DNA of 64,000 nt, taken from positions 30,880-94,879 of the IMG/VR virus record IMGVR_UViG_3300023082_000009; one strand, given 5' to 3'. The notes beneath the pieces were generated by a model, which was not told the DNA's origin, did not search any database, and saw only the letters and a program-made list of their open reading frames with translations. Positions 3,277-62,600 of this stretch are shown piece by piece. Within the stretch, counting starts at the first letter, position 1. Each line of letters opens with the position of its first letter. A program made the position numbers and the translations under genes. The DNA comes from a virus.

Positions 3277-4632
3277 ATGAAGTACAACCACGGGCACCAC
3301 ACTTTGTCGACCCTGGCAAAGACGCTGACCACCAAAGACGACGCTCACTTCATCGCCTACATCGAAGTGATGTCCGTTCTGGGCAAGTTCTGGTCCGCCC
3401 GGTTCACCCCCAGCGAGTTCCTGGTCCTCAGTTTCCTGGCCAATCGCACGCTGATTTTCCGTAAACGGGCGGAGGCAATCACCCGTAGACACTTCGAGGA
3501 GGGCATCTCGTCGGAGAGAGGGGACACCTGCACAGGCTGCGGAGTGAGCGAACACGCCCGAGTCAGGGCTTTAAACTCTTTGTGTTCCCGCAATTTCATC
3601 AACGTACACTGCTTTTTGGAAGGCAAAACAGAGACCAAGCCCCGGATCTACGAGCTGAATTATGAGCTTTTAGTAGAGGGCCACGACCTCGGGGAGATCC
3701 GAAACATGCTAAAACGTAGCCGAACACTCGACCGAGATAAGCGTCCCGAGGACGATTTTTATGCCGAAAATACCCCCCGACAATTCGCGGGGGTACCCCC
3801 CGACAATCGTGGAGGCTTAACAGAGCTATTACATAGCTCTAAAAGAACTTCTATTAACATAGAAGAGTCGGCAGCTGCGCAGCCGAGCCAATCGAGGTTG
3901 AAGGTTGGTAAGAAGACAGTAGCGGGCGCAATCAATTGCACACCCAAACCTCCGCCTACTGGTAATGCCGCAGAGCGCATCGCGCAGATCCAAGCTGACA
4001 CTACGAAAGCTCGGACCACCCGCGTGGCTACTGCAAAGACCCTCCCCGCCCGGCGCTGGGAGATCAAGGATCTACAGGCCCTCCTTGACCAGGGGCGCGC
4101 CGACGCGGGCGTCACCGTGCCTCGCGTTATGGCGACTACCAAAGGGGCGGGTGTGTTGTTCAAGCGGATGAAGGAAGCCGAGATCACCGACGCGCTGGAG
4201 TTCTTCACCTGGACCTTCCAGAACTGGGGCACCGTGGCCTCGGCCAACCGCCGCGCCAAGGCCAAGCAGTTGAAGGACACCAAGGCGTCGAACAGCGAGA
4301 TGTCCCTGATCCCGAACTTCGCGGAGCTGGCCTACCGCTTCCCCTACATCCTCGCGTTCTTCAACGACCGCAAGTACACCAAGGTGCAGGAAGAGCAGAA
4401 GGTTGTCCGGCAGAAGCAGGAGACCCGCGCCCTCGCAGAGAAGCAGCAGGTGGCCATTGCTACCCGCCGCGACATCGTGCGCCAGCAGGACATCGAGCAA
4501 CGCGACAAAGACCGAGCTGCCCAGGAGCGTCGCGTAGCCCGCCCGGTCGTGCGCCGCAGCCGCCAGCTCGTCGACGACCTGGACGAACCGTTGCCAGCCT
4601 ACAAAGAAAGGGAGTGGAACCCAGATGAGTAA
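3277..4632 (+). CDS. putative replication initiator (lambda O-like, N-terminal wHTH)
   Basis: GGAGG SD; N-terminal wHTH-like segment (EFLVLSFLANRT...RVRALNSL...PRIYELN); internal direct repeats and AT-rich tract; lies upstream of DnaC-like and DnaB genes. Confidence 0.6.
   Translation: MKYNHGHHTLSTLAKTLTTKDDAHFIAYIEVMSVLGKFWSARFTPSEFLVLSFLANRTLIFRKRAEAITRRHFEEGISSERGDTCTGCGVSEHARVRALNSLCSRNFINVHCFLEGKTETKPRIYELNYELLVEGHDLGEIRNMLKRSRTLDRDKRPEDDFYAENTPRQFAGVPPDNRGGLTELLHSSKRTSINIEESAAAQPSQSRLKVGKKTVAGAINCTPKPPPTGNAAERIAQIQADTTKARTTRVATAKTLPARRWEIKDLQALLDQGRADAGVTVPRVMATTKGAGVLFKRMKEAEITDALEFFTWTFQNWGTVASANRRAKAKQLKDTKASNSEMSLIPNFAELAYRFPYILAFFNDRKYTKVQEEQKVVRQKQETRALAEKQQVAIATRRDIVRQQDIEQRDKDRAAQERRVARPVVRRSRQLVDDLDEPLPAYKEREWNPDE
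3771..3865. other. putative replication origin inside the initiator gene
   Basis: TACCCCCCGACAAT at 3771-3784 and 3794-3807, then an AT-rich tract with inverted repeats at 3822-3840 and 3848-3865. Confidence 0.5.
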
Positions 4633-5230
4633 GTCAACCGAACGTTTCATGGCTGCCGGGGTTCCTCGGTCCTGCTGGGAGCTGAGCTGCCGCGACCGTG
4701 GTCAGGTGAACATCACCGAGTGGGCCAAGGAGCAGGCCCGCCGCCGTAAAGAGCGGGAGGCCCTTGTCTCCGCCTACGTCCTGCACCCCGTGACCAAGCG
4801 AGGGGCCGAACGCCGGGCGGAGGATTTCACCTATTGCCAGGAGACGGTCGACCTGCTCGCGAGGCAGGCGGTGCTTGAAGGATTGCCTGTGAAAGTAGTT
4901 CCGTTCCACGGGCTGGTTCATGCTCTTCAACACCCCTCGGCCTATATCTCCCAGGACACGGACCCAGAAGCCCGCGCCAGGACCACGATATTTGACTTAC
5001 TTGGTCAAGGAGTTATTGTCGTACCTCTCCTGCCCAACCCGCTCGACGCTGAATGCGAGCCATATCAGTATCGGGTCGCGCTCGACTTCCTGCTCACCCA
5101 CCTCTACGAGGGCGGTGCCCTGGTCATCGGCGGTTCGGAGCAGCTAAGCAAGCGACTTCAAAGTGGCTACCCCGATTCCCTGGAACGTCTACTCCTGGGG
5201 AACTCGGAATACTTCGGGACAGGCTCATGA
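4625..5230 (+). CDS. degenerate DnaC/IstB-like helicase loader
   Basis: Sits between initiator and DnaB; N-terminal AGVPRS motif; no intact Walker A. Confidence 0.4.
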   Translation: MSKSTERFMAAGVPRSCWELSCRDRGQVNITEWAKEQARRRKEREALVSAYVLHPVTKRGAERRAEDFTYCQETVDLLARQAVLEGLPVKVVPFHGLVHALQHPSAYISQDTDPEARARTTIFDLLGQGVIVVPLLPNPLDAECEPYQYRVALDFLLTHLYEGGALVIGGSEQLSKRLQSGYPDSLERLLLGNSEYFGTGS

Positions 5231-6501
5231 GCACAGGATTGAAATTCATCGCTTCGGCGATCCAGCACCAGGCGGGGAACGCGATCATCCGCGTCGACCC
5301 CGACCTGCTGATCACGGAGCAAGAGGTAGCGGTCTACGAGTTCTGCCGTGACTACTACCGCAGCTACCGCGAAGTGCCCACGCCCGCGATGGTCCAGGAG
5401 AACCTGAACATCCGCATGCCTCGGGTAGAAGGGCCGGTGGGTTTCTACGAAGACGAACTCCAGGATCGCTTCAACTTCGAGGTGGTCCGGGAGGGCTTCA
5501 CCGATCTGCGCTCGATGGTCCAGGAAGGCAAGCCCGGTCCGATGATCGAGACCATGGAGCAGACCATCCGGCGCATCCGTCGGACCCGTCGCGGCCAGGG
5601 CGGGATGATCAACATCGGCGAAGCCATGACCTTGGCCATCGACCGCCTGCAAGCCCTCCAGGGGAGCGGCGGGATGTCAGGGGTACCTACCCCTTGGCCG
5701 ACCCTCAATCGCATCACCAGCGGCTACCAGAACGCCGACCTGATCACCTGGGTGGGCCGGACCTCCCTCGGTAAGACGATGATGCTCCTGGCCCAAGCCG
5801 AGTTCGCCTATGACAACGGCTACTCGGTTCTTTTCGTTACGACGGAGATGGCCTCGGAAGCAATCGCACGACGCTGGATGGCCATGAAGTGGGGCTTCGA
5901 TCCCGAGGCCCTCAAGTCGGCCCAGGTCTCCACTTACACCCTGCGCAAGATGCGTGCGCTGAACGTCGAACTCCTCGGGCGGGAGCGCTTCCGTTTGCTC
6001 AGCGCCGGGATGAAGGGTGACCTTGCCATGGTCGAGGCCGCCATCGAAGAGATGCAGCCCGACATCCTGTTCCTGGACGGTGTGTACCTGATGCGCCCGA
6101 GCGGCAAGCAAGTACCCCGCAGCAAGACCGAGCAGGTCTCTGCCGTGTTCGACGAACTCAAGCAACGCAACATCGACACCAATATCCCGTTTGTCGTCAA
6201 TACCCAGTTCAACCGGTCATCCGGGAAGGGCGGTAAAGAGGGCAGCCTGGAAAGCATCGGCCTCTCCGACACGATTGGCCAACACAGCTCCATCGTAATT
6301 GCGATCAAGCCTGGACCCACGGACAACTGGCACCACTCCCGAGAGCTGGACTTGCTCAAGGGGCGGGAAGGTGAACAGGGCAAGGTGAACATCAATTACC
6401 GCTTCAAACCTACGGATCTCAGCGAGATGTCGGATGAGCAACTGGAGGAATGCAGCAATGGGGCGCCCGCTATCGGAAGCGATGGCGAGATCTACACTTG
6501 A
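5227..6501 (+). CDS. dnaB: DnaB-like replicative helicase
   Basis: GVPTPWPTLN, Walker A GRTSLGKT, VTTEM, FLDGVYLM, TQFNR, LLKGREG; ATGA overlap with upstream gene. Confidence 0.9.
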   Translation: MSTGLKFIASAIQHQAGNAIIRVDPDLLITEQEVAVYEFCRDYYRSYREVPTPAMVQENLNIRMPRVEGPVGFYEDELQDRFNFEVVREGFTDLRSMVQEGKPGPMIETMEQTIRRIRRTRRGQGGMINIGEAMTLAIDRLQALQGSGGMSGVPTPWPTLNRITSGYQNADLITWVGRTSLGKTMMLLAQAEFAYDNGYSVLFVTTEMASEAIARRWMAMKWGFDPEALKSAQVSTYTLRKMRALNVELLGRERFRLLSAGMKGDLAMVEAAIEEMQPDILFLDGVYLMRPSGKQVPRSKTEQVSAVFDELKQRNIDTNIPFVVNTQFNRSSGKGGKEGSLESIGLSDTIGQHSSIVIAIKPGPTDNWHHSRELDLLKGREGEQGKVNINYRFKPTDLSEMSDEQLEECSNGAPAIGSDGEIYT

Positions 6502-18628: not shown

Positions 18629-18690
18629 CACTTCGCGAGTTCACCAACTTGACCCGGCATCCCGCCACCTACACACGAGAGTTACCCACC

Positions 18691-20184
18691 ATGGCAAACA
18701 CCAAAGCTAAATCCGCTCCGGTTGAGGAAGCGGCTGCCGACATCGAAGTCGGTTCCAATGTCACCTTCCTCGGCTACGATGCCGACACCCCCGAAGCCGA
18801 ACGCATCCTCGAAGCTGGCGAGCGTTACGAAGTAATCGAACTGCCCGGCACCACCGAGATCGACGGCGAAGTTGTCGAAACCGGTTACGTTCTGCGCCTG
18901 CCGAACCCTGACTTCAACAAGAAGAAAAAGGTTCACGCCGAAACCAACCCTGAATTCCTGGAAACCGAAGTCTTCGCCGAAGAGATCGAACTCTACGTTG
19001 AAGGCGACGATGCGGGTGCCGAAGGTGGCGAAGCTGCCGACGCGGGCGCTGATGCCCCAGGCGATGATGACCCTCTGACCTACGAAGAGCTGGCCGGTTA
19101 CGACAAAGCCCAGCTGCTCGAATTCGCAGAAGTCAACGAAGTCAAGCTGACCGCAGCTGACAAGAAAACCGACAAGGCGCTCCTGGCCAAGCTGGCTGCC
19201 GTCTACGAGCTGAGCCCTGCCGAGCCTGCCCCTACCAAGGCACCGGCCAAACCAGCAGCCAAAACTGCCGCAGCCAAGCCTGCCGCCGAAGCGCCTGCTG
19301 CCAAGCCTGAAACCGCCGCAGCCAAGAAAAAGCGTGAAGCTGCCGAAGCCGCGCAGAAGACCGCAGCCGCTGCCAAGAACAAAGGCGTGAACAAGTCGCC
19401 CGAAGGCGAAGTCGATCCTGACGAAGTGCCGGACCTGGACAACGAAGACGATGCCGTTCTGGCGTTGATCGACGGTGACGTGGATCTGGTCGAAGTAGCC
19501 CAGGAACTGGAATCGGCGGTGGCCGTGTCCGAGTACCAACTCGGCGGCGTGCTGTACCACATCAAAAAAGAAAAAGTGCATCTGGCCGTCGACAAGAAGG
19601 GCAAGCTGCTCAACCCTGAATACGGCGAAACGGGCGGCTTCAAGCTGTTCCTCCAGGAGAACTTCAACCTGGACTACCGCAAGGCCACCTACCTGATCGA
19701 CATCTACATCAACTTCACCCAGGCCGGTATCGAAAACCCGTCCGAAGTTGTTGGCCGTATCGGCTGGACCAAGGCAAGCAAGATCGCCAAGCCGCTGGGC
19801 CTGCCTGACGCTGACGTAGAAGGCCTGATCCAGGCTGCCGAGAACAACACCGTTCAAGACCTGTCTACCATCATCAAAGATGAATTCACGGTCGGCGGCG
19901 GTGAGGGCGCCAGCAAAGGCTCCGAAGGTACCAAGGTCAATCGCCTGACCCTGCGCTTCCGCTTCGTTGAAGAAGAAGCCAACGTGGTCGAGGACATCCT
20001 CAAGGAAGCCGCTGAGAAACTCGGCGTCAAAGAAGATGAAGCCTTGTTCCAGATCCTGACCGAGTATCACGCACAAGCCCTGACCGGCGACGCTGATGCC
20101 CAGGACGTGGAAGACACTGCCAAGGCAGCGGCCAACGCCAAGCCAGCTACACGCGGTAAGCCTCGTGGCGCAGCTCGTGCCTAA
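18691..20184 (+). CDS. acidic multidomain putative DNA-binding protein (HeH/Rho-N-like, AKP-rich linker, DUF3102/HTH-like, RHH-like C-terminus)
   Basis: Strongly biased codons; own promoter and terminator; LGGVLYHIK...FKLFLQENFNLDYRKATYLIDIY...IGWTKA. Confidence 0.6.
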   Translation: MANTKAKSAPVEEAAADIEVGSNVTFLGYDADTPEAERILEAGERYEVIELPGTTEIDGEVVETGYVLRLPNPDFNKKKKVHAETNPEFLETEVFAEEIELYVEGDDAGAEGGEAADAGADAPGDDDPLTYEELAGYDKAQLLEFAEVNEVKLTAADKKTDKALLAKLAAVYELSPAEPAPTKAPAKPAAKTAAAKPAAEAPAAKPETAAAKKKREAAEAAQKTAAAAKNKGVNKSPEGEVDPDEVPDLDNEDDAVLALIDGDVDLVEVAQELESAVAVSEYQLGGVLYHIKKEKVHLAVDKKGKLLNPEYGETGGFKLFLQENFNLDYRKATYLIDIYINFTQAGIENPSEVVGRIGWTKASKIAKPLGLPDADVEGLIQAAENNTVQDLSTIIKDEFTVGGGEGASKGSEGTKVNRLTLRFRFVEEEANVVEDILKEAAEKLGVKEDEALFQILTEYHAQALTGDADAQDVEDTAKAAANAKPATRGKPRGAARA

Positions 20185-20202
20185 CTGACCCGCAGCAACC
20201 AG

Positions 20203-20232
20203 AAAAGGCACCCACTACCGGGTGCCTTTTTT
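20203..20232 (+). terminator. intrinsic terminator
   Basis: AAAAGGCACCC-ACTACC-GGGTGCCTTTTTT. Confidence 0.85.
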
Positions 20233-20252
20233 ACTTGACCAGGAGATCTGCT

Positions 20253-21014
20253 ATGCCAACTCCAATTCGCCCAGGTCGTAAGTCGGTGAACGTGACCCGA
20301 CCAGAGAAGGGCAGTACCCCGGCACGCCCGTCGCGCCCTGCGCCACGGCCAAAGCCAACCGACATGTCCAAGGTCAAACTGCGCCTTGAGTACGTGGACA
20401 TCAATGACATCCAGCCCTACGAATGGAACGCACGCGACAACGCCAAGGCTGTGACTGCCGTGGCCAACTCGATCAGAGCGTTCGGCTTTGTCGTGCCCGT
20501 AGTGATCGACGCCAACGGCGTGCTGGGCGCTGGCCACACTCGTGTCGAAGCAGCCAAGACCCTGGGAATGCTGGAGGTTCCTGCGGTGCGGGCGGAGCAC
20601 TTGACCAAGGAACAGATGGACGCCTTCCGTATCGCCGATAACAAGGTGGCGGAGATGGCAACCTGGAATACCTCGATGCTGGCGGATGAGATGGACAAGC
20701 TGACCGGCCTGTTCGACTTCACCGACTTCGGTTTCGGCCAGGGCGAGATCGACTGCCTTGCGTCCCTGGTAGGCGACGACTGCCTGTCTACTGCCAACCT
20801 GGGCGCCCTCACCGGTACCGCAGCAGGCGAAGAGACTCCAGGCCGCAGCGTTCGCCGTGCGCCGCTCCAGGCCCGCATCGTGATCGGTGAGCTGACCTTC
20901 TTTGTCCCCGCCGAGCAGTACCGTAACTGGGTGCAGGGTCTGCGCGATCTGCACGACTTCAAAGACGAAGACATTGCGGCTGATCTGAAACGCCGCCTGG
21001 GGTTCCACGAATGA
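20253..21014 (+). CDS. ParB/Srx N-terminal domain protein
   Basis: IQPYEWNAR...SIRAFGFVVPVVID...AGHTR..AA...RIADNK. Confidence 0.9.
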   Translation: MPTPIRPGRKSVNVTRPEKGSTPARPSRPAPRPKPTDMSKVKLRLEYVDINDIQPYEWNARDNAKAVTAVANSIRAFGFVVPVVIDANGVLGAGHTRVEAAKTLGMLEVPAVRAEHLTKEQMDAFRIADNKVAEMATWNTSMLADEMDKLTGLFDFTDFGFGQGEIDCLASLVGDDCLSTANLGALTGTAAGEETPGRSVRRAPLQARIVIGELTFFVPAEQYRNWVQGLRDLHDFKDEDIAADLKRRLGFHE

Positions 21015-21607
21015 AATACCTCCCTTGGATTGTTTGCTCCATCATCGCCCTGGCCTACCCCTTCGCCGGGTACCTGCCAGCCCTCGTACCTGGGACGGAC
21101 TGGGGCCTCGTAGGCGTCCTGGCTGCACCGCTCCGGCATGCGACCCTTCTACACCTCGCGGTGAATCTGTTACCCTTGGCCTACCTCCTCAGCCTGATGC
21201 GCAACGACCCGCCTGCCCGTGTGATCATGGGCCTGCTGACCATCGTTGTAGTGGGAGGTATGTGGGTGTGGTTCTGGGGTCGACTCGGTATCCACGAAGG
21301 GGCAAGCGGCCTCACCCTCGGCGTGCTGGCAATGCTGGCGATGCGCACTGACTACCGATCCGTACTATCCGTTGCAGCCCTGGTGGGCACCGGCATCGCC
21401 CTTGAGTATGTGAACATACCCGAGGCGTCCTGGGAGACCCACCTGGGTGGCTTCGTGGCTGGAGCCTACTACGGGATCATCACACTGAACTGGAAGAGCA
21501 AGCGGGAGATGGACCATGACGACGAATCGAGTAGTGCGCAGGCTACGCCATGCCCGGCCAAGTGCCGAAGTGACAGCCGACCACATTACCCTGGTCCCGG
21601 TCGATAA
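21011..21607 (+). CDS. rhomboid-family intramembrane serine protease
   Basis: Multiple TM helices; H...HL..N, HEGASG (catalytic Ser), SWETHLGG (catalytic His). Confidence 0.85.
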   Translation: MKYLPWIVCSIIALAYPFAGYLPALVPGTDWGLVGVLAAPLRHATLLHLAVNLLPLAYLLSLMRNDPPARVIMGLLTIVVVGGMWVWFWGRLGIHEGASGLTLGVLAMLAMRTDYRSVLSVAALVGTGIALEYVNIPEASWETHLGGFVAGAYYGIITLNWKSKREMDHDDESSSAQATPCPAKCRSDSRPHYPGPGR

Positions 21608-23072
21608 GCTGACCCCCGACAATAAGAACCCCCGCAAGGCGGACCAAGCCCGGTCCGCTCTGCTGCTCCTCTCGCTCAAGAAGTTGAGCTTCCTCATGCC
21701 GCTGTTCCGTCAAAGGTCCAGCGGCTTGTTGCTGTCTGGCCACCAGCGCCTCACCCAGTCGAAGATCCTGGGCCTGGATGCGGTGCCGGTGGTAGACGTG
21801 GATGTCGAGGACAGCGAGGTGATGAACATCAACCTCCTGTTCAACCGACTGACCAACGACTTCAACGCGTTCGACACGGGAGCCCAGGTCCAGGAGCGCC
21901 TGGACATGAAGCAGGTGCTTGCGCTGCTGGAGGCCCTACCGGACGCCGAGGGTCACTACGCCCTGGGCTGCACCGTGGAACCGATCCGGCAGTTCGCTCG
22001 GGCGGTGGGTGATCAGTACGACAAGAAGGCCGCAGTCACAGCCGGTGCCTTTACCCGTATGAATATCCGCATCCCTCTCGTCGTCAGCGAGTCCGGCAAG
22101 GTGGTCAATGGCGTCAACCGGATGTTCGCCGCGCTCGACCGTGGTATCGAAGAGTGGCCGGTAGTCCGGGTGCCCGACGACATCGCCGAGGTTGCAGCCG
22201 TGGTGCTGAACTACCTGTCCATGGACTTCTCCGTCGACGACGATTTCAAGAACCTGCTGCGCTCCTCTGCGTTCCGCCGCGTGTCGAACAACCGGGGCAC
22301 CGTAGGCAAGACCTACCGCTTCTGGGCCAACGGCTGCCGCTCGCTCCTGGATCGCGACAGCTACTCGCCGGAGTATTGGTCGAACTTCCGCCAGCTGCAC
22401 GGCAACTCGATCCTGGACTTCGGGGCGGGCCTCGGGAAGGTGGCGCCCTACCTCCTGACCAAGGGCTTCGACGCTCACGACTTCGAGCCGTACCGCGTAG
22501 ACCCAGACATGAATGCCGCCGAGCCCTCGCGCACCTACAGCAGGGAGCAGGCCAAGCGATTCCTCAAGGCCATCGAGAACCCCGAGCAGCGCTTCGACAG
22601 CATCTTCATGTCTGCCGTGATGAACTCGATCCCGTTCCCGGAAGACCGGCTCATGGTGCTGGCGATTGTCCATGCGCTGTGTGCCCGTGAAACCGTGGTC
22701 TACGGAACCTGCCGCGACATGTCCGACTTTGACTACGAGTACGGCGGCGTGCGCAACGGCAACTACTTCGTCTGGGATACCGAGCCGGGCGTTCGCCTGG
22801 GCGACGTGTCGAGCTGCCCCAAGCTCCAGAAGTTCATGACCCAGGAAGAGGCTCGCGGGTACTTCGAGCGCTTCTGGACCACTATCGAGTTCTGGAAGGG
22901 TGGCAACGTGTTCTACTTCAAGCTCTCCGATCCGAAGGGCGTGAACATCAAGGCCCTGGGCCAGTCGCTAGACTTCGAGTTCAACCTGCCGTTTCGGGAC
23001 GGCAAGGGCTTGGATCTGGTCAAGGAAGCCAAGGCTGCATTCAGCAAGCGTCTGCGGAGGCAAGTTCCATGA
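21516..23072 (+). CDS. tandem ParB-ParB domain fused to class I SAM-dependent (DNA) methyltransferase
   Basis: ParB1 NPRK...LSGHQR; ParB2 PLVV...VNGVNR; MTase ILDFGAG, DFEPY, FDSIFMSAVMNSIP. Confidence 0.8.
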   Translation: MTTNRVVRRLRHARPSAEVTADHITLVPVDKLTPDNKNPRKADQARSALLLLSLKKLSFLMPLFRQRSSGLLLSGHQRLTQSKILGLDAVPVVDVDVEDSEVMNINLLFNRLTNDFNAFDTGAQVQERLDMKQVLALLEALPDAEGHYALGCTVEPIRQFARAVGDQYDKKAAVTAGAFTRMNIRIPLVVSESGKVVNGVNRMFAALDRGIEEWPVVRVPDDIAEVAAVVLNYLSMDFSVDDDFKNLLRSSAFRRVSNNRGTVGKTYRFWANGCRSLLDRDSYSPEYWSNFRQLHGNSILDFGAGLGKVAPYLLTKGFDAHDFEPYRVDPDMNAAEPSRTYSREQAKRFLKAIENPEQRFDSIFMSAVMNSIPFPEDRLMVLAIVHALCARETVVYGTCRDMSDFDYEYGGVRNGNYFVWDTEPGVRLGDVSSCPKLQKFMTQEEARGYFERFWTTIEFWKGGNVFYFKLSDPKGVNIKALGQSLDFEFNLPFRDGKGLDLVKEAKAAFSKRLRRQVP

Positions 23073-23341
23073 AACACATCACCGATGGGTATCAGCCAGT
23101 GAGTGCAGGGCGCGTGGGCGCTGCCCCTCCAAAGGAGCGCTTCGACCCACCTCCTACTACCGAGGAACGGCGCGTCACCAAGACCCAGTTACAGGCCGAG
23201 CTGCGTAACGAGATCCTCGAAGAGCTGGCTGTGCTGCGGCGCATCATCAAGGGCCGAACTCTGGGCGCCGATGTATGCCTGGACAAGCACGAGGCAGAGT
23301 CCCTGGCCGACCGTCTACAGAGTTGGGCCGGTCGCGTCTAA
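23069..23341 (+). CDS. hypothetical protein
   Basis: GGAGG SD; ATGA overlap. Confidence 0.6.
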   Translation: MKHITDGYQPVSAGRVGAAPPKERFDPPPTTEERRVTKTQLQAELRNEILEELAVLRRIIKGRTLGADVCLDKHEAESLADRLQSWAGRV

Positions 23342-23371
23342 TCGAATGCAATCAATTGCACGGAGTACACC

Positions 23372-24082
23372 ATGAACAGTCCCGCACACTTCCCGGCCAA
23401 CCCTTCCCGCTTCGTCTTCGACGCGTCGGTGGCAGCCATCTTCGATGACATGGCCGACCGCTCGATCCCACTCTTCCGGGAGGCGCACCGCAACAACGTC
23501 AAGCTGGCGGAGCCCTGGCTGGCGAGCGATCCCCAGGTGCTGGACGTGGGCGCGTCCCGTGGTGCGTTCCTGCTGGAGCTGGATCGCCTATACGGCATCG
23601 ACAACTTTGACGTGCGCGCCACCGACATCAGCCCGGAGATGGTGGCCTACATGCGGGAGGACTTCCCCTCGGTGCAGGTCGACCAGCTGGACATCACCAC
23701 CAGCGCGTTCCTCAACTGCTCCCACACGTACGACGTGATCAACTTCACCTACGTACTCCAGTTCATCCCGAAGGAGCTGCAACGCATTGTGCTGGCCAAG
23801 GTGTGCGCCATGGTCAAGCCGGGCGGTGTGCTCTTTATCGGCCAGAAGAACAAGGACGACAGCCCCGCAGGCCAGATGCTCCACAAGCAGTACATCAAAT
23901 GGCGCATGGACAATGGCTACACCCAGGAAGAGATCGACGCCAAGACGAAGGCACTTGCTGGTAGCATGTGGCCCACTGATGAGGCTATGCTCATCGGAGA
24001 TCTCAAAGGCGCCGGGATGGTCGAGGTGGTACGCACCTGCTCCTGGGGTCCATTCAGCAACCTGATGTGCATCAAGCGATAA
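23372..24082 (+). CDS. cmoA: CmoA-like (carboxy-SAM synthase family) SAM-dependent enzyme
   Basis: F.FD..VA..FDDM..RSIP, LDVGASRG, D.SP.M, Y.LQF, PGG.L....K, NGY...EI..K..L all follow the CmoA layout. Confidence 0.75.
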   Translation: MNSPAHFPANPSRFVFDASVAAIFDDMADRSIPLFREAHRNNVKLAEPWLASDPQVLDVGASRGAFLLELDRLYGIDNFDVRATDISPEMVAYMREDFPSVQVDQLDITTSAFLNCSHTYDVINFTYVLQFIPKELQRIVLAKVCAMVKPGGVLFIGQKNKDDSPAGQMLHKQYIKWRMDNGYTQEEIDAKTKALAGSMWPTDEAMLIGDLKGAGMVEVVRTCSWGPFSNLMCIKR

Positions 24083-24092
24083 GGAGACGGAC

Positions 24093-24881
24093 ATGCCCAC
24101 GAATAACGAACGCCCTGGCGAACGCCGCGTCATCATGCGCCGGAGTCGTGGGCAGATGCCTTTCAGCAGTGCAGGCCGGGTGGACGGTACCCCTCGGGAA
24201 GCCCCGGTGATCGACGACGATATTGACGACGCCATCGACCCTGACCAGATCGACGACCACGTACGCCAGCAGACCCGACGCCCTGCCCCAGGCCCGAGCC
24301 GTGGCGACGCGCCAGAGCGCAACCCTGCCCAGATGCTTATGGACGTGGATGAGTCCGGCAGCGCCGCCTACAGCAAGGAATACCGCATGGTGCTGCTGCA
24401 CAAGATGCTGGCGCGGAAGATGCCCCTGCACGAGATCGCCCGGCACCTGCGCGTATCCATCTCCACCATCGAGAAGGACCGGGTGCGGTTGAAGGCCTGG
24501 ATGCGCGAGCAGGCCAAGGAGATGAACATCGACGAGATGATCGGCAGCCAAGTCGCTCTCTACGATGAGCTGACCGCCATGTCGTTGCGCATCGCCTCGA
24601 AGACCTCCGGCGAGGGTGCCGTGCCCGTGGCCATGCAGCTGGCCGCCATGCGTACCACCCTGGCAGCCAACGCTGACAAGACCCGGTTCCTCGGCGCCGC
24701 TGGTGTACTCGATGTGCTGCGCTTCCGTAAGGGCGATACCGGTGAAGCACAATCTGACATCCAGATCGTCATGGAGCGGACTGCCCGCATGCTCGCTGCC
24801 CTGGCAGAGGACGGCGGCGGCATGGAGAACTTCGGCGACTTCTCCATCAACGATGTGGAACCTGAAAGCGAGGAACTGTGA
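24093..24881 (+). CDS. putative terminase small subunit
   Basis: HTH (EIARHLRVSISTIEKD); directly upstream of TerL. Confidence 0.6.
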   Translation: MPTNNERPGERRVIMRRSRGQMPFSSAGRVDGTPREAPVIDDDIDDAIDPDQIDDHVRQQTRRPAPGPSRGDAPERNPAQMLMDVDESGSAAYSKEYRMVLLHKMLARKMPLHEIARHLRVSISTIEKDRVRLKAWMREQAKEMNIDEMIGSQVALYDELTAMSLRIASKTSGEGAVPVAMQLAAMRTTLAANADKTRFLGAAGVLDVLRFRKGDTGEAQSDIQIVMERTARMLAALAEDGGGMENFGDFSINDVEPESEEL

Positions 24882-26788
24882 TGGCCGTTCAACGTAGAAG
24901 CGCCATGCGCAAGCAGCTGGTTATCCAGGAGGTCGAGCTGATCGCCGACGGCTTGGCCAACAAGCAGTTCTCCGAGATGTACCGGCACGCAGTCCTCTGC
25001 GCCATGAACGGCGACACCCGGCTGTTCGACTTCATGTCGGTCCTGGACCGCGTGCCCGTGAGCATCGAAGACTTCATCGACAGCCCTGAGTTCCTGGGCA
25101 GCACTGACCTTGAGATGTGGCCAGAGGTTCGCCGGGCGGTCATCGAAGAGAACAAGGACTGGTGGAAGGGCCTAGAAGGCGGAGCACGGGATACCTGCTG
25201 CCTCATGGGGTGCACCCGTAGCGGCAAGTCGACCCAGGCAATCATCGGTACCCTGTACGACTTCTACATCCTCACCTGCATGCAGAACCCGCAGAAGTGG
25301 TACGGCCTGCCCTCGGCTACCTCCATCGTGTTCCCGATCATTGGCGCGAAGCCACACGTAACGAAGAAGGTTGTGTATGCCCCGATGCGGAAGTGGATCG
25401 AGCGCATGCCCTACTTCCAGGCCTGGGCACAGCCCGACAAGAACATCGACAGCGAGATGCTGTTCACCGAGAAGAACTTGCGGATCACGCCCGTCGGCGG
25501 TAGCGAGGATGCGATCCTGGGTGAGGCGACCATCGGTGGCATCATCGACGAGATCAACTTCATGAACGTGGTGCAGAAGTCGAAGAAGGCCGAGGTGTCC
25601 ACCGGGCGGTCCGGCGTCTACGATCAGGCAGCGCAGATCTTCGATACGTTCAGCCGCCGTCGCCGTGGTACGTTCGCCAAACGCTTCCCGCAGATCGGCA
25701 AGATCTTCGCGGTGTCGTCCACTCGGTACCGGGGCGACTTCACCGACAAGCTCAAGGCCGACGTGATCAAGCACGACATGAAGAACGTCTACATCTTCGA
25801 CAAGAAGCAGTACGAGGTTCAGCCTGCATCCAACTACTGCGGCCAGACCTTCCGCCTTCTGATCGGTAACGATGTGCAGCACGAGACCCGCGTGCTCCGG
25901 GACGACGAGGAAGTGATCGAAGGCGCCTGGGTGGAGAACGTGCCTATCGAATGCCTCCAGGACTTCCAGCGTAAGCCGTACGACGCGCTGCGGGACATCC
26001 TGGGCCTGTCGTCCAACGTGATCAGCCCGTTCATCAAATCGCGCCACAAGGTCTACGAGTGCGTGGAGGCTGGCCGGGAGGTTGGGCTGGAGTCCTTCCT
26101 CATCCGCGACCACGTTATCCTGGGCGAGCACGGGATGCCGCAGGTCAAGCATGCCCACTATTGCAAGAACCCATCGCGCCCTCGCTATGTTCACATCGAC
26201 TTGTCGCAAACGGGTGACCGGTGTGGGATCGCGATGATCCGATTCGATGGCATGATGCACCTACAGCGGAGTGGTGACTTGACCGAGCTGCTGCCCACCG
26301 GGGCGGTAGAGATGGCTTGCTCCATTCAGCCGGATGCAAACAACGAGATCGACATCGCCGAGGTACGGGCCTTCGTCAAGAACCTGAGCCGGTTGTATGG
26401 CTACCCCATCAAGGGCGTGTCCTATGACGGCTTCGATAGTCGCGAGTCTATCCAGGCGTGGCGCAAGGATCGGATGCCTACCAAGATCATCTCGATGGAC
26501 CGCACGAGCGCACCCTACAAGCAGTTCCGGGACGCGCTGTACGACCGTCGGATTGGTCTGCTCGATGACGCGGACGTGACCAGCGAGATCCTTGAACTGG
26601 AGTACGACGAGTCGAAGGACAAGGTAGACCACACCATCGTCGGCAAGAAGGACGTGGCGGATGCGATCTGCGGTGCGTACACCAACATGCTGGAGCGCCG
26701 GAGCACCTGGGAAGGCGTGGATGAATCCCTGGCCGAGTCTGGCCGATACGATGGCGAGCGGTTCGGGGACGAACCACGCCCACACTAG
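24878..26788 (+). CDS. terL: terminase large subunit
   Basis: Walker A GCTRSGKS, Walker B GIIDE, RNase H-like nuclease YVHIDLS...SYDG...KDVADA. Confidence 0.9.
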   Translation: MMAVQRRSAMRKQLVIQEVELIADGLANKQFSEMYRHAVLCAMNGDTRLFDFMSVLDRVPVSIEDFIDSPEFLGSTDLEMWPEVRRAVIEENKDWWKGLEGGARDTCCLMGCTRSGKSTQAIIGTLYDFYILTCMQNPQKWYGLPSATSIVFPIIGAKPHVTKKVVYAPMRKWIERMPYFQAWAQPDKNIDSEMLFTEKNLRITPVGGSEDAILGEATIGGIIDEINFMNVVQKSKKAEVSTGRSGVYDQAAQIFDTFSRRRRGTFAKRFPQIGKIFAVSSTRYRGDFTDKLKADVIKHDMKNVYIFDKKQYEVQPASNYCGQTFRLLIGNDVQHETRVLRDDEEVIEGAWVENVPIECLQDFQRKPYDALRDILGLSSNVISPFIKSRHKVYECVEAGREVGLESFLIRDHVILGEHGMPQVKHAHYCKNPSRPRYVHIDLSQTGDRCGIAMIRFDGMMHLQRSGDLTELLPTGAVEMACSIQPDANNEIDIAEVRAFVKNLSRLYGYPIKGVSYDGFDSRESIQAWRKDRMPTKIISMDRTSAPYKQFRDALYDRRIGLLDDADVTSEILELEYDESKDKVDHTIVGKKDVADAICGAYTNMLERRSTWEGVDESLAESGRYDGERFGDEPRPH

Positions 26789-26798
26789 GAGCAGGACC

Positions 26799-27113
26799 AT
26801 GATGACTTTCTTTGCAGTAGCCGGGATGGTGTGGCTCACGCTGATGGCGATACGCGTGCCCGCCCTCTACCGTGAGTCCAAGATCTTCGTAATGTCGTTC
26901 GTCAAGGGCGGCGGGTACACGAAGCTCCAGGCCCGCTGGGTGACTTTCCGTTGGGTGATCCTGCCCAGCCTCGGGGCGGCGCCGTCGCTTGTGTTCCTTG
27001 AATGGAGCCTGTTCTACACCGCACCATCTGCCCCAGAGATCCACGAAGCAGCCAAAGCCATCGACAAGTTCCTCAAGGAACGTCAGGCCAACGCAATCAA
27101 CGAAGGGAAGTAA
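26799..27113 (+). CDS. small membrane protein
   Basis: SD; two hydrophobic segments. Confidence 0.6.
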   Translation: MMTFFAVAGMVWLTLMAIRVPALYRESKIFVMSFVKGGGYTKLQARWVTFRWVILPSLGAAPSLVFLEWSLFYTAPSAPEIHEAAKAIDKFLKERQANAINEGK

Positions 27114-27115
27114 CC

Positions 27116-27964
27116 ATGCAACAGTACCGCGAATTGATCAGCGACATCCTCCTGCGCGGCGAGGAGCGCAAATGGCGCAACGGCCACACCGGCATCAGTA
27201 TCTTCGATGCCCGGATGGAGTTCGACTTGCGTGAAGGCTTCCCGCTCGAAGGGCTCAAGAAGGTGCCGTTCAAGACCGGGGTGGTAGGTGAGCTGATCGG
27301 CTTCATTCGCGGGTACACCAACGCTGCGGACTTCCGTGCCCTGGGCTGCAACGTCTGGAACCAGAACGCCAACGAAGAGCCGAGCTGGCTGAACAACCCG
27401 GCACGTAAAGGGCACGACGACCTGGGCCGCATCTACGGTGCGCAATGGCGGGACATCCGCGTCCAGGACGGCGGTAGCTACGCGGTGGTCGACCAGCTCT
27501 GGCAACTCCTGGCTGGCCTGCGCAGCGACCCGCACGGGCGGCGTCACGTAGTGTCCGCCTGGAACCCGGCTGAGCTGCACCTCATGGCCCTGCCTCCTTG
27601 CCACATGTTCTTCCAGTGCTACGTGAGCAACGACGGGCACCTGGACCTCAAGATGTACCAGCGCAGTGCGGACGCCTTCCTGGGCATCCCGTTCAACATC
27701 GCCAGCTACGCGACGCTGATGCACATCCTGGCCCACTTCTGCAACCTCGTGCCGCGTCGTCTGATCATGGACCTGGGCGATGCCCACCTGTACACGAACC
27801 AGATTGATCTGGCCCACGAGATGCTCAAGCGTTCGTGCCCGGAACTGCCCGACCTGGAGTTGAACACCGACGGGTGGGAAAGCCTGATGCACATCAAGCC
27901 CGAAGACTTCGCACTCAACGGGTACCGTCCACACGCTGCAATGAACTGCGAGATGGCCGTATGA
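27116..27964 (+). CDS. thyA: thymidylate synthase
   Basis: LG.IYG.QWR, RR..VSAWN, LPPCH, YQRSAD.FLG.PFNIASY (Asn = dUMP specificity), HLY. Confidence 0.95.
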   Translation: MQQYRELISDILLRGEERKWRNGHTGISIFDARMEFDLREGFPLEGLKKVPFKTGVVGELIGFIRGYTNAADFRALGCNVWNQNANEEPSWLNNPARKGHDDLGRIYGAQWRDIRVQDGGSYAVVDQLWQLLAGLRSDPHGRRHVVSAWNPAELHLMALPPCHMFFQCYVSNDGHLDLKMYQRSADAFLGIPFNIASYATLMHILAHFCNLVPRRLIMDLGDAHLYTNQIDLAHEMLKRSCPELPDLELNTDGWESLMHIKPEDFALNGYRPHAAMNCEMAV

Positions 27965-29364
27965 GAATCGTACGTACCCGACCGGCAGTCCTGGCCCAGG
28001 CTGTCCGTGACACCACCGCCGACCAGCGCGGCAGCTCCGACCTCGTGGCCCGCGTGATCGAAGAGATCAAGGCCGAGTCCGGGCGCACTGCCAAGAAGGA
28101 GATGCTCAAGGCACTACGCGACAGCAGCGACATCGCGCTCAAGGTGATGCTAGCCGTCTTCGACGTGAACCGTACCTACGGCATCAAGAAGGTACCGAGT
28201 GCCCGCGTGAAGGGTAACCCACACTCCGGCAGCCGCGAGTTCAGCGACAACACCTGGGGCATCCTGGATGACTTGGCCAGCCGTAAGCTGACCGGCAATC
28301 GTGCCCAGGATGTCCTGGCCGTGGAGCTGGGCTTCCTGACGCAGCCATCGCGTGACCTGTTCACCGCCATCCTCCAGCAGAACCTGCGGGCGGGGTTCAG
28401 CGGCGACGTGGTAAACGAGGTCTGGGGCCCGGTCCTGCGCATCGTCAAGATCCAGCTGGCCAACACCTTCTTCATGAAGCAGAAGGCTGGCGAGAAGGGT
28501 CCGCGTAAGGTGAACCCGAAGGCCCGCTTCCCTGCCTACGACGACATCAAGTACGACGGCGTGCGCGGCTTCCGCCTGAGCGACGAGGACACCGGGTTCT
28601 TCTCGCGGGCCGGTCTCCCCCTGGAATGCCCGCCTGCCTTGCATACCCTGATCGGCGAGTTCCTGGAGGATGCCCGTGCGTTCTACGAGTGCGGTGCCGA
28701 GGAGGCGTTGTTGCTCGATTGCGAGATCGTGCCGCTTGCCGGTGGCTTCGCCGACATCATGAGTCAGGTGCGTGCCTCGAAGCGTGGCGCGAGCGACGGA
28801 ACCACCGGTATTCGCATCATCGACATCATCACCAAGCAGGAGTACCTGGAGGGTAAGTCCTACGATAACCAGCGTGCCCGCCGTGAAGACCTGGAGCTGA
28901 TGATCCAGCAGCCTTGGTTCAAGAAGTACGAGGGCTACATCAAGCTGACCGAAGGCCGCGAAGTGAAGAACGCCGAGGAGGCCCTGGCCTTCTACGCGGA
29001 GGTCGTGGCCAACGGCGGCGAAGGCACGATGCACAAGCACTACGACGATTACTGGGAAGCCAAGCGCACCGACGGCTGGTTGAAGCTCAAGCCTGCCGAG
29101 GAGATCGAAGGCAAGATCGTCGGGTACAAGGACGGTGCCAAGCACAGCAAGTGGGAAGGCTGGCTCGGGGCGGTCCTGGTCAAGCTACCCAACGGGGTGG
29201 TGGTATCCGTCGACGGTATGACCGACAAGGTGCGCGAGTACATCCACCTGCACCGCGAAGAACTCCTGGGCGAGACAGTCGAACTGCTCTACCACGAGAT
29301 GACCCCAGACGGCAGCCTGCGTCATCCACGGTTCAAGCCCGGCTTTGTACGGGACGATAAATAG
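27961..29364 (+). CDS. ATP-dependent DNA ligase
   Basis: KYDGVR, LDCEI, EGTMHK, WLKLK, SLRHPRF. Confidence 0.92.
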   Translation: MRIVRTRPAVLAQAVRDTTADQRGSSDLVARVIEEIKAESGRTAKKEMLKALRDSSDIALKVMLAVFDVNRTYGIKKVPSARVKGNPHSGSREFSDNTWGILDDLASRKLTGNRAQDVLAVELGFLTQPSRDLFTAILQQNLRAGFSGDVVNEVWGPVLRIVKIQLANTFFMKQKAGEKGPRKVNPKARFPAYDDIKYDGVRGFRLSDEDTGFFSRAGLPLECPPALHTLIGEFLEDARAFYECGAEEALLLDCEIVPLAGGFADIMSQVRASKRGASDGTTGIRIIDIITKQEYLEGKSYDNQRARREDLELMIQQPWFKKYEGYIKLTEGREVKNAEEALAFYAEVVANGGEGTMHKHYDDYWEAKRTDGWLKLKPAEEIEGKIVGYKDGAKHSKWEGWLGAVLVKLPNGVVVSVDGMTDKVREYIHLHREELLGETVELLYHEMTPDGSLRHPRFKPGFVRDDK

Positions 29365-61553: not shown

Positions 61554-62600
61554 ATGGGACTCTTGAACCCCACCCTCGTGCGCCTTAGCCCGCACTTCCT
61601 GCTCTCGGACTTCATGGGCAGCGATACGGTCTACAGCACCGGCTTCGCCAACGTCTTCAACAAGGTTGCAGGCCACGACGAGCGACTGGCCAACGGTAGA
61701 GCACTGTGCGAGCACGCCCTGGAGCCGATCCTTGCTCTGGTCGGGCCGATCTCGATCTCCTATGGGTTTATCAGCCTTGATCTGTCCAAAGAGATCGTCA
61801 CCTACCAAGATCCGCGCAAGCCCTCCCACCACATGTGGAACCTCGGGGCGGCAGCGGACATCTGCCCGCATGCCTGGGTGCAGAACCTGTCTGGCCAAGT
61901 CAATGAGACCTGCTCGCCGATAGAGTTTGCGCTGCGGCACCTGCAAGACCTACCCCTGAGCCGCCTGATCACCTACAGCGAGTCGCCGTATATCTGCGTT
62001 GCGGTCAGCGCTGAGGAGGTCGCCAACGGCACCCCGCGCATGGCTTGGTACGAGAACCGCTACCAGGGCAAGAAGGGCGCGAAGCCCGACTATCGCAAGT
62101 ACCCCAGCGCCACCACCCGAGCCAACGCCCTCAAGCGCCTGGACCAGGACGGCATGGACCATGCCTGGGAGGGCAAGGGCTTCCCTACGTACCACGGCGG
62201 CGGGCGGCGGCAGCTGCACCACATCCGCGTGTCCAAGTACACGATGCTCACCGACTGGCTGTACGACGAAGAGTTCGTGGCCGATGGGGTGAAGAACCTC
62301 CCGCCGATCTCCAACCCTGCGGTCTGGGATGCCTTCGTGCGGGTGGGCGAGGTGTACGACACCCTCATCGAGCTGACCGGCCTGCCGCGCTTCTCCATCG
62401 TCTCCGGGTACACCTCCCCGCGCAGCGCCGGGTGGCTGCCGAACCACGATTGGCGCGGCGACACCATCGAGTTCGAGCTGGTCCCTCCGGGCTACAAGAC
62501 ACCGGAGGACATCGTGATCTCCGTACTGTTCGGCGGCTGGCCGAAGGACACCTACATCAAGGCGAACGACGGACGCCTCCTGATCACTATCGAGCGATAG
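61554..62600 (+). CDS. peptidase M15A-like protein (possible endolysin), duplicated domain
   Basis: RLSPHFLLSDF...LEP......ISISYGF...SHHM...AAADI; second degenerate copy VSKYTML...SIVSGY. Confidence 0.65.
   Translation: MGLLNPTLVRLSPHFLLSDFMGSDTVYSTGFANVFNKVAGHDERLANGRALCEHALEPILALVGPISISYGFISLDLSKEIVTYQDPRKPSHHMWNLGAAADICPHAWVQNLSGQVNETCSPIEFALRHLQDLPLSRLITYSESPYICVAVSAEEVANGTPRMAWYENRYQGKKGAKPDYRKYPSATTRANALKRLDQDGMDHAWEGKGFPTYHGGGRRQLHHIRVSKYTMLTDWLYDEEFVADGVKNLPPISNPAVWDAFVRVGEVYDTLIELTGLPRFSIVSGYTSPRSAGWLPNHDWRGDTIEFELVPPGYKTPEDIVISVLFGGWPKDTYIKANDGRLLITIER

Follow-up and report, generated by a model that had tools for sequence, protein, structure and literature searches.

The described system that comes closest to the locus treated here is that of Yang et al. 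(Nat Commun 2025, PMC12783734), in which a phage CmoA supplies carboxy-S-adenosylmethionine (carboxy-SAM or Cx-SAM, SAM being S-adenosylmethionine) to CmoX, a homologue of the C5-methyltransferases (C5-MTases). CmoX makes 5-carboxymethylcytosine, which CmoY then amidates to give a glycine amide, as in Synechococcus phage S-B43; ParBc genes were noted to lie often near phage CmoA/CmoX and this was left without explanation (PMC12783734). Here we analyse a 64,000-nt stretch of the IMG/VR virus record IMGVR_UViG_3300023082_000009 (the window; bases 30880-94879 of a source record of 94,879 bp with a CheckV completeness of 100%; window G+C 61%), and in it a cassette at 20253-26788 where a stand-alone ParB gene, a gene fusing two ParB-like domains to a class I methyltransferase (MTase) domain and a CmoA-like gene precede the terminase genes. 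The survey given below supports the CmoA-like gene and the ParB-fused transferase as a conserved functional pair. Our preferred reading, to which we assign a probability of about 0.5, is that ParB, fusion and CmoA-like enzyme together put a carboxymethyl-type mark on phage DNA as a two-step post-replicative module. The original prediction had presented the cassette as a candidate new DNA (carboxy)methylation system, and as a concept that novelty is lost, since a 2025 paper already describes CmoA-dependent DNA carboxymethylation in phages (PMC12783734). The novelty is partial: a phage CmoA feeding a DNA carboxymethyltransferase is already known, and it is the transferase family (phrog_5475) that differs. 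In the literature we found no paper describing a CmoA-linked ParB-ParB-MTase module.

The likeness to CmoA-CmoX(-CmoY) lies in a phage CmoA homologue placed beside a SAM-fold transferase, with ParB genes nearby and no CmoB. The logic would also be the same, namely to make carboxy-SAM and then carboxymethylate DNA, here read from the genes alone. Unlike CmoX, the transferase is a double-ParB protein with a Methyltransf_23-type domain, and it shows none of the C5-MTase fold (PF00145), the SPPC motif and the equivalent of R350 by which CmoX is recognised. Also unlike the CmoA-CmoX-CmoY set, the locus has no amide ligase and its CmoA is from a divergent branch. PF00145 has no match anywhere in the 94.9-kb genome, nor was an asparagine-synthetase-type amide ligase of the CmoY type found in the whole genome. 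For comparison across phages we surveyed 106 related loci (70 viral loci and 36 loci from bacterial genomes), whose open reading frames (ORFs) in six frames were scanned with the window proteins and with CmoA profiles. Homologues of CmoX, CmoY or CmoB are present in none of the 106, and phmmer searches with the CmoX of S-B05 or with a C5-MTase annotated hhaIM from an SPbeta-like phage returned nothing from the genome or from these loci.

Three other known systems are related in part. With the E. coli CmoA/CmoB pathway of tRNA cmo5U formation the locus has in common the CmoA fold, the SAM-binding residues and the lid motif (PMC3663124, PMC4482062), as well as the notion that carboxy-SAM has a dedicated transferase with a preference for it; it differs in having neither CmoB nor a tRNA gene, and in the residues T and Q that stand where E. 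coli CmoA has R199 and E164. A ParB without helix-turn-helix (HTH) beside a post-replicative DNA-modifying enzyme is known from the 5mYOX176/ParB176 thymine dioxygenases, where O'Toole et al. (PNAS 2026) found that the HTH-less phage ParB activates the DNA dioxygenase on dsDNA and is required for its action there (PMC13229309). That reaction is an Fe/2OG oxidation, unlike the alkyl transfer proposed here, and our locus has ParB domains within the enzyme as well. Lastly, the fusion belongs to the same domain architecture class as the ParB-Methyltransf_23 fusions which a PNAS 2025 survey of the ParB-CTPase fold found to be enriched in phages and prophages and to which it assigned no function (PMC12704722). 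CmoA is not mentioned in that survey, and the link of these fusions to CmoA and their terminase-proximal synteny come from the present analysis.

The evidence that carries the pairing is its conservation. Relatives of the fusion number 358 by a word index, with a length of about 510 aa and many on contigs of about 100 kb, and a search of 1.84 billion proteins gave 191 representatives of 50%-identity clusters at E<=1e-30. Of the 86 loci whose sequence extends 1.5 kb or more past the fusion gene, 84 have a CmoA gene after it on the same strand. The gene-neighbourhood survey, which the original prediction had named as a check, came out in favour of the pairing. In one of the two exceptions CmoA lies 7 kb downstream of the fusion gene; in the other, a Puniceicoccales metagenome-assembled genome, CmoA was not found. 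The loci fall in two groups. The first, which we call SM1-like, includes the window; its nearest named phages are Pseudomonas aeruginosa siphoviruses of the genus Samunavirus (SM1, PaMx31, BHU-1/15/17, UF_RH6, PA_L9 and FBPa45), with a nucleotide identity to the window of about 72% at most and confined to the gene of a 636-aa protein. Where there is room on the contig, the SM1-like order is a gene for a 511-aa protein, ParB, fusion, CmoA-like, a 262-aa protein and the large terminase subunit (TerL), and the median gap between fusion and CmoA is 46 nt. The second group is distant, with fusions only 30-36% identical, and is found in prophages of Alphaproteobacteria, Verrucomicrobiota, Chloroflexi, Actinomycetota, Bacillota (Laceyella) and Desulfovibrionaceae (Bilophila). 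Here the order is ParB, fusion, a 140-aa protein (phrog_32036), CmoA, TerL and a lambda-type portal; TerL is of the lambda gpA type (Pfam 1e-94 to 1e-101), and CmoA is often canonical (R199, E164 and more than 200 bits against the canonical CmoA profile). The cassette is therefore placed before the terminase in two phage groups whose TerL families are unrelated.

This distribution also bears on tRNA modification. The original prediction had seen neither cmoB nor a tRNA gene in the window, and this holds for the whole 94.9-kb genome, in which no tRNA gene and no CmoB homologue was found. In addition, five of the prophage hosts have no full-length CmoB, and the only strong CmoA match in them is the prophage copy. 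Because the phage lacks tRNA genes and CmoB and these five hosts lack a full-length CmoB, the analysis supports that tRNA modification does not explain the pair. The same observations weigh on an explanation in which the fusion methylates DNA with SAM in the ordinary way while the CmoA-like enzyme has work of its own, either draining SAM so that SAM-dependent defences of the host are disabled, or feeding host CmoB with an effect on tRNA decoding. The likely Pseudomonas-type hosts would be expected to have a CmoB of their own, which counts for it. ParB-MTase fusions are commonly taken as orphan DNA methyltransferases (PMC12704722), and SAM depletion by CmoA is raised as a possibility by Yang et al. 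(PMC12783734, discussion). Yet a near-obligate adjacency kept over a large evolutionary distance is hard to explain for unrelated functions, the pair is still carried by prophages in hosts without full-length CmoB, and CmoB is never part of the module, so we regard this explanation as unlikely.

The space between the two genes has further contents. In most loci of the distant group the protein of about 140 aa (phrog_32036) occupies the same spot between fusion and CmoA (for example L065:7063-7485, L066:5090-5524 and L086:6622-7131). It has an N-terminal hhhhDxNxT motif along with TAR, K and ESN motifs, and the window phage lacks it; ESM Atlas features put it near phosphatases of the HAD_PNKP / T5 deoxynucleotidase type (0.93-0.94), which is to be taken as a lead only. 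Among SM1-like loci, 1-3.7 kb of extra genes lie between fusion and CmoA-like gene in L042 (7477-11173), L014, L017, L023, L025, L034 and L038, and L047 has about 7 kb inserted there, including the gene of an 863-aa protein without Pfam match. The junction thus seems to be an insertion hot spot, which in the window is also the place of a small gene, orf90. It may be added that CmoA genes occur in other company: jumbo phages of Erwinia, Dickeya and Pseudomonas have a canonical-type CmoA (R199, E164) followed by a 348-aa hypothetical protein (for example L005, Erwinia phage pEa_SNUABM_16, at 3971-5799, and PaBG), and neither CmoX nor a ParB fusion is annotated beside it. That 348-aa protein may be yet another partner enzyme for carboxy-SAM.

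The fusion gene lies at 21570-23072 by the start used in the database, its ORF being open from 21516, which gives a protein of 500-518 aa. It matches phrog_5475, a family of unknown function, at 6.4e-136 (residues 25-514 against positions 4-457 of a 458-position profile), and the same family is matched by the distant prophage fusions at 2.9e-105 and 3.1e-92. In the AlphaFold2 model (pLDDT 84.7) the N-terminal region matches ParB/Spo0J/Noc and the C-terminal part is a class I methyltransferase domain. The second ParB-like domain (residues ~125-226) is not detected by Pfam, but hhalign relates it to the first domain with 90.7% probability (E 1.2e-6) and to the stand-alone ParB with 93.9%, so the label ParB-ParB-MTase used in the original prediction is right. 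In general the ParB domains of the window are scored low by Pfam (20.8, 21.1 and 21.9 bits against a cut-off of 26.3) and are matched by the ParB families of PHROG at 1e-17 to 1e-46. They have the PF02195-type ParB/Srx fold with a box II of the GxxR kind, in the form of the motifs GHTR, GHQR and NGVNR; their sequence matches in the PDB are ParB/Spo0J proteins, and Foldseek finds the ParB structure 7bnr. The stand-alone ParB (20253-21014, phrog_620 at 2.6e-46) also matches phrog_498, the N-terminus of a DNA MTase, at 2.2e-37. It carries the GHTR box II-like motif and a conserved C-terminal region, has no recognisable HTH and stays below the Pfam ParB_N cut-off with 20.8 bits. In both phage groups its gene precedes that of the fusion, and the protein is probably a partner or activator of the transferase.

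For the MTase domain the original prediction had recorded the motifs LDFGAG and SAVMNSIP and the lack of the PC motif of C5-MTases, and this is correct: ILDFGAGL and SAVMNSIPF are present and PC is absent. What is not supported is the assignment as an amino-type MTase. The stretch after strand 4 reads VMNSIPF in place of the (D/N/S)PP(Y/F/W) motif IV of the amino-MTases, so there is no DPPY-type motif, and none of the families N6_N4_Mtase, N6_Mtase and D12 is matched. The only Pfam matches of the fusion are Methyltransf_23/12/11/25 (PF13489, 1.5e-8), and NSIPF stands where the Methyltransf_11/23/25 enzymes have their 'vlhhlP' motif. In fold comparison the best neighbours of the domain are the M. 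tuberculosis heterocyclic toxin MTase, METTL6, CcbJ, ToxA and glycine N-MTases, and Z hardly falls along the list (11-13; 7bgg 13.1 and METTL6 12.8, by Foldseek and VIA). No DNA amino-MTase is among the fold matches listed, which does not exclude a family outside the list. A relationship to CmoB was also considered and rejected, as hhalign against E. coli CmoB gave 69% probability over 20 columns with little past motif I; greedy settings raise this to 78%, and over this range (69-78%) the fusion has only generic class I motifs in common with CmoB. An alignment of the invariant N352 of the fusion with CmoB Y200 was too weak and was not used. An intein or intron in the fusion gene was likewise rejected: some tblastn matches span about 2100 nt per 500 aa because their segments run from the stand-alone ParB paralogue upstream into the fusion gene, and no insertion is involved.

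From these folds it could be argued that the target is not DNA at all. The ParB-like domains would then be NTP-binding or catalytic parts of the Srx type, and the enzyme would alkylate a nucleotide, a tRNA, a packaging protein or a small molecule. The nearest structures of the MTase domain are indeed small-molecule MTases and the tRNA m3C enzyme METTL6, ParB/Srx folds occur also in kinases and sulfiredoxin (PMC12704722), and the constant position of the module next to the terminase genes would suit such a target. Against this, the ParB N-domains are closest to those found on bona fide phage DNA MTases (phrog_498, 6e-18 and 2.2e-37), the stand-alone ParB partner parallels the ParB-dependent DNA dioxygenases (PMC13229309), and the phage has no tRNA genes. 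We consider a target other than DNA to be quite unlikely. Returning to DNA carboxymethylation, the motifs DFGxG, FEP, VxNSxPF, DR and PKxQK of the active-site region of the fusion are conserved in at least 95% of 93 sequences across both groups, and therefore the same cofactor and the same chemistry are expected in both. The fusion is a candidate DNA carboxymethyl (alkyl) transferase.

The CmoA-like protein (236 aa, gene at 23372-24082) matches TIGR00740 over its full length (residues 12-234) at 1.1e-28, with 100.5 bits against an equivalog cut-off of 193.3. NF011995 gives 63.8 bits against a cut-off of 285, and phrog_4752 is matched at 1.1e-46. Among solved structures the only sequence matches are E. 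coli CmoA (4gek/4iwn) and H. influenzae YecO (1im8), at 1.4e-17. The SAM-contact residues D62, G64, S66, D89 and D117 are conserved and the CmoA-specific lid motif NGY(T/S)xEEIxxK is kept, with G189, Y190, E194, I195 and K198. The differences lie in the pocket. In E. coli CmoA, R199 forms a salt bridge to the carboxymethyl group (PMC3663124, PMC4482062), and Glu/Asp are said to be the sole residues at position 164 (PMC3663124). R199 aligns to T192 of the window protein (EISQKR vs EIDAKT), as the original prediction had noted by eye with the caveat that the product may then not be carboxy-SAM. The alignment is sound, and its weight as a disqualifier is not: the validated phage enzyme SpCmoA has Glu at the position aligned with 199 and Arg one helical turn later, at 203. 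The fusion-linked CmoAs show three arrangements, R199/E203 as in canonical enzymes, x199/R203 as in SpCmoA, and E199 with R207, the last found in 35 of 35 alphaproteobacterial prophage-type CmoAs. As the clamp residue moves among real CmoAs, SpCmoA included, the loss of R199 alone means little.

Other substitutions set the SM1-like family further apart. Its residue at 199 is T, S or N, 203 is variable and 207 is Trp. Position 164, where the window has Q158, is Q in 32 of the 44 SM1-like members, H in 5, E in 3 (L013, L046 and HJ05) and S in 2, whereas it is E or D in all 52 other CmoAs examined. K185 is changed to R in 44 of 44 SM1-like CmoAs, while Lys185 is found in all others, and there are further substitutions W18->F, F133->Y and L207->W as well as a 2-residue insertion before the LQF motif. 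The SM1-like branch is, on the aligned sequences, the most altered among the CmoAs compared. It could therefore be argued that the rewired pocket makes a different SAM derivative, from which the fusion would install a chemically different DNA adduct. The SM1-specific changes at otherwise fixed sites (E164->Q, K185->R, W18->F, F133->Y, L207->W), the want of an Arg at 199, 203 or 207, the insertion before LQF and a TIGR00740 score at half of the cut-off all favour this. On the other side, the transferase keeps all the motifs it has in common with the branch that has canonical CmoA, L013, L046 and HJ05 keep E164 so that Q and E seem interchangeable, and a carboxylate-binding Arg already sits at 199, 203 or 207 among CmoAs, to which the invariant R185 could add a fourth solution. 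We hold a different SAM derivative to be possible, if doubtful. Its more specific form, in which the rebuilt pocket (Q164, R185, W207) would give a non-carboxy-SAM cofactor and this a chemically undescribed base mark at an atom other than cytosine C5, is a tentative extension that we rate no higher. Within the DNA-modification reading we lean modestly towards the same cofactor rather than a new one, because the transferase keeps every motif in common with the canonical-CmoA branch, and the CmoA-like protein is best described as a putative synthase of carboxy-SAM or a related SAM derivative.

Under the carboxymethylation reading the module would work as follows. By homology, the CmoA-like enzyme would turn SAM into carboxy-SAM or a very close analogue, prephenate being the co-substrate of this step in canonical CmoA. 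As gene linkage and domain architecture suggest, the fusion would then use the carboxy-SAM-type cofactor in place of SAM and transfer a carboxymethyl-type group onto phage DNA bases, with its two domains of the ParB/Srx NTP-binding type holding it on DNA and the stand-alone HTH-less ParB helping. The cassette lies in the late block directly ahead of terS and terL, so the progeny DNA would be marked near packaging, that is, shortly before or during it. The purpose would presumably be to blunt host restriction or other DNA-sensing defences. A comparison may be made with phage Mu, whose Mom, an enzyme with an acyltransferase-type fold, makes N6-carbamoylmethyl-adenine. Should adenine N6 be the target here, the mark would correspond to the Mom-type adduct in its acid form, and both would be late anti-restriction base modifications. 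We know of no involvement of carboxy-SAM in the action of Mom.

Several points weigh against this reading. In the literature on SM1-like (Samunavirus) phages we found no mention of modified DNA. In fold the MTase domain comes nearest to small-molecule N-, O- and C-MTases and to METTL6, a tRNA enzyme, and it gives no evidence of a nucleic-acid substrate. The CmoA-like protein scores about half of the NCBIfam equivalog cut-off and belongs to a subfamily in which Q takes the place of E/D164, a position that does not vary elsewhere, and in which Arg is conserved at none of 199, 203 and 207. Lastly, adjacency to the terminase may reflect only placement in the late operon. Taken as a whole, the original prediction is upheld for a conserved CmoA/transferase pair, for a role apart from tRNA modification and for the recurrent place before the terminase; its amino-type MTase finds no support.

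All genes of the cassette are on the + strand, and neighbouring genes either overlap or have 30 nt or less between them. The row that had been read from the window (ParB, rhomboid, ParB-ParB-MTase, small ORF, CmoA-like, TerL) is present in full, TerL being identified by fold. The 636-aa protein (24878-26788; phrog_9 at 4.5e-7) has a Walker A motif LMGATxTGKS, a Walker B motif IIDEINF and the acidic residues of an RNase H-like nuclease. By sequence or profile search it has no match in PDB or Pfam. Although its structure model is of low quality (pLDDT 65), the best 31 Foldseek matches in the PDB are all large terminases, and the nuclease domain gives a TM of 0.61-0.64 against those of G20c and P74-26. 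In the ESM Atlas it lies near clusters that bear the name terminase large subunit or the newer family PF27249 (MJ0330_N), some of them with inteins. From the fold search and the ESM Atlas we conclude that this protein is TerL. For the small subunit (TerS), which had been called along with it, the 262-aa protein at 24093-24881 is the probable candidate, by its position and a 4-nt overlap with TerL. It has a weak HTH match (HTH_38, 7.7e-4) and is conserved upstream of TerL in SM1-like loci; no PDB match and no PHROG support were found for it, and among its homologues only 1 of 15 touches a TerS PHROG, at 0.0055. Directly 3' of TerL, at 27002-29364, lie a thymidylate synthase (2.5e-84) and an ATP-dependent DNA ligase, which places the terminase genes inside a nucleotide-metabolism/replication block. 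Farther away, an endolysin gene is found at 61554-62600, and large structural-looking genes (one of them of 1715 aa) occupy the part of the genome preceding the window.

Upstream of ParB, the gene at 18649-20184 codes for an acidic 511-aa protein of unknown function (phrog_17202, PHROG 3.8e-30), for which Pfam gives no match. It adjoins ParB in all SM1-like loci with room and is absent from the distant prophage group. It is divided from the ParB operon by a terminator-like hairpin at 20196-20237 on the + strand (inverted repeat I2, whose 18-nt arms show 83% complementarity, with TTTTTT after them). This hairpin was not among the sites of the terminator scan, which found no + strand terminator-like site within 20253-26788. 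Inside the cassette two genes stand apart. The rhomboid (21011-21607; PF01694, 8.1e-10, 39.5 bits against a cut-off of 22.6) has the Ser of GASG and the His of THLGG, and no homologue of it was found in the 70 related viral loci. The product of orf90 (23069-23341) has no family match, and the gene is found only in the four closest relatives. Pfam gives no match for orf90 or for orf140 of the distant group, and the proposal that the two are counterparts was rejected as they have no similarity. Therefore rhomboid and orf90 are late insertions outside the conserved cassette, and a place for them in the system is not supported.

A palindrome copy had also been remarked just before the Shine-Dalgarno sequence of the CmoA-like gene. 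It is indeed there, TGCAATCAATTGCA at 23347-23360, 11 nt before the ATG. The motif, TGCAAT-NN-ATTGCA, is AT-rich and 14 bp long, and has 19 copies in the window with at most one mismatch against 0.12 expected. Its 22 perfect copies in the genome are spread over all regions; those in the window start at 1244, 9541, 18568, 23347, 36283, 39210, 41347, 42148, 43610, 44615, 44914, 51613, 56635 and 59217. The copy at 23347-23360 is kept only in L007-L009 and L040, the relatives with orf90. A site specific to the cassette is thus rejected, the motif being genome-wide and this copy confined to the four closest relatives. Several copies lie just upstream of gene starts, and 1-3 copies occur in the loci of more distant SM1-like relatives. 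The palindrome is probably a regulatory motif, to which a regulator of the phage binds or which serves as part of promoters.

To our knowledge CmoX (2025) is the only natural DNA carboxymethyltransferase known. If the carboxymethylation reading is true, the fusion would be a second, unrelated enzyme family using the same rare cofactor, and the abundant ParB-Methyltransf_23 fusions, like the HTH-less ParB proteins of phages, would gain a concrete biochemical role. The cassette is widely spread, with about 190 clusters at 50% identity, in lytic phages of about 100 kb as well as in lambda-like prophages of at least 6 bacterial phyla. Its close relatives SM1, PaMx31, BHU-1, UF_RH6, PA_L9 and FBPa45 are cultured phages of Pseudomonas aeruginosa, and the finding would have a bearing on how such phages fare against restriction systems.

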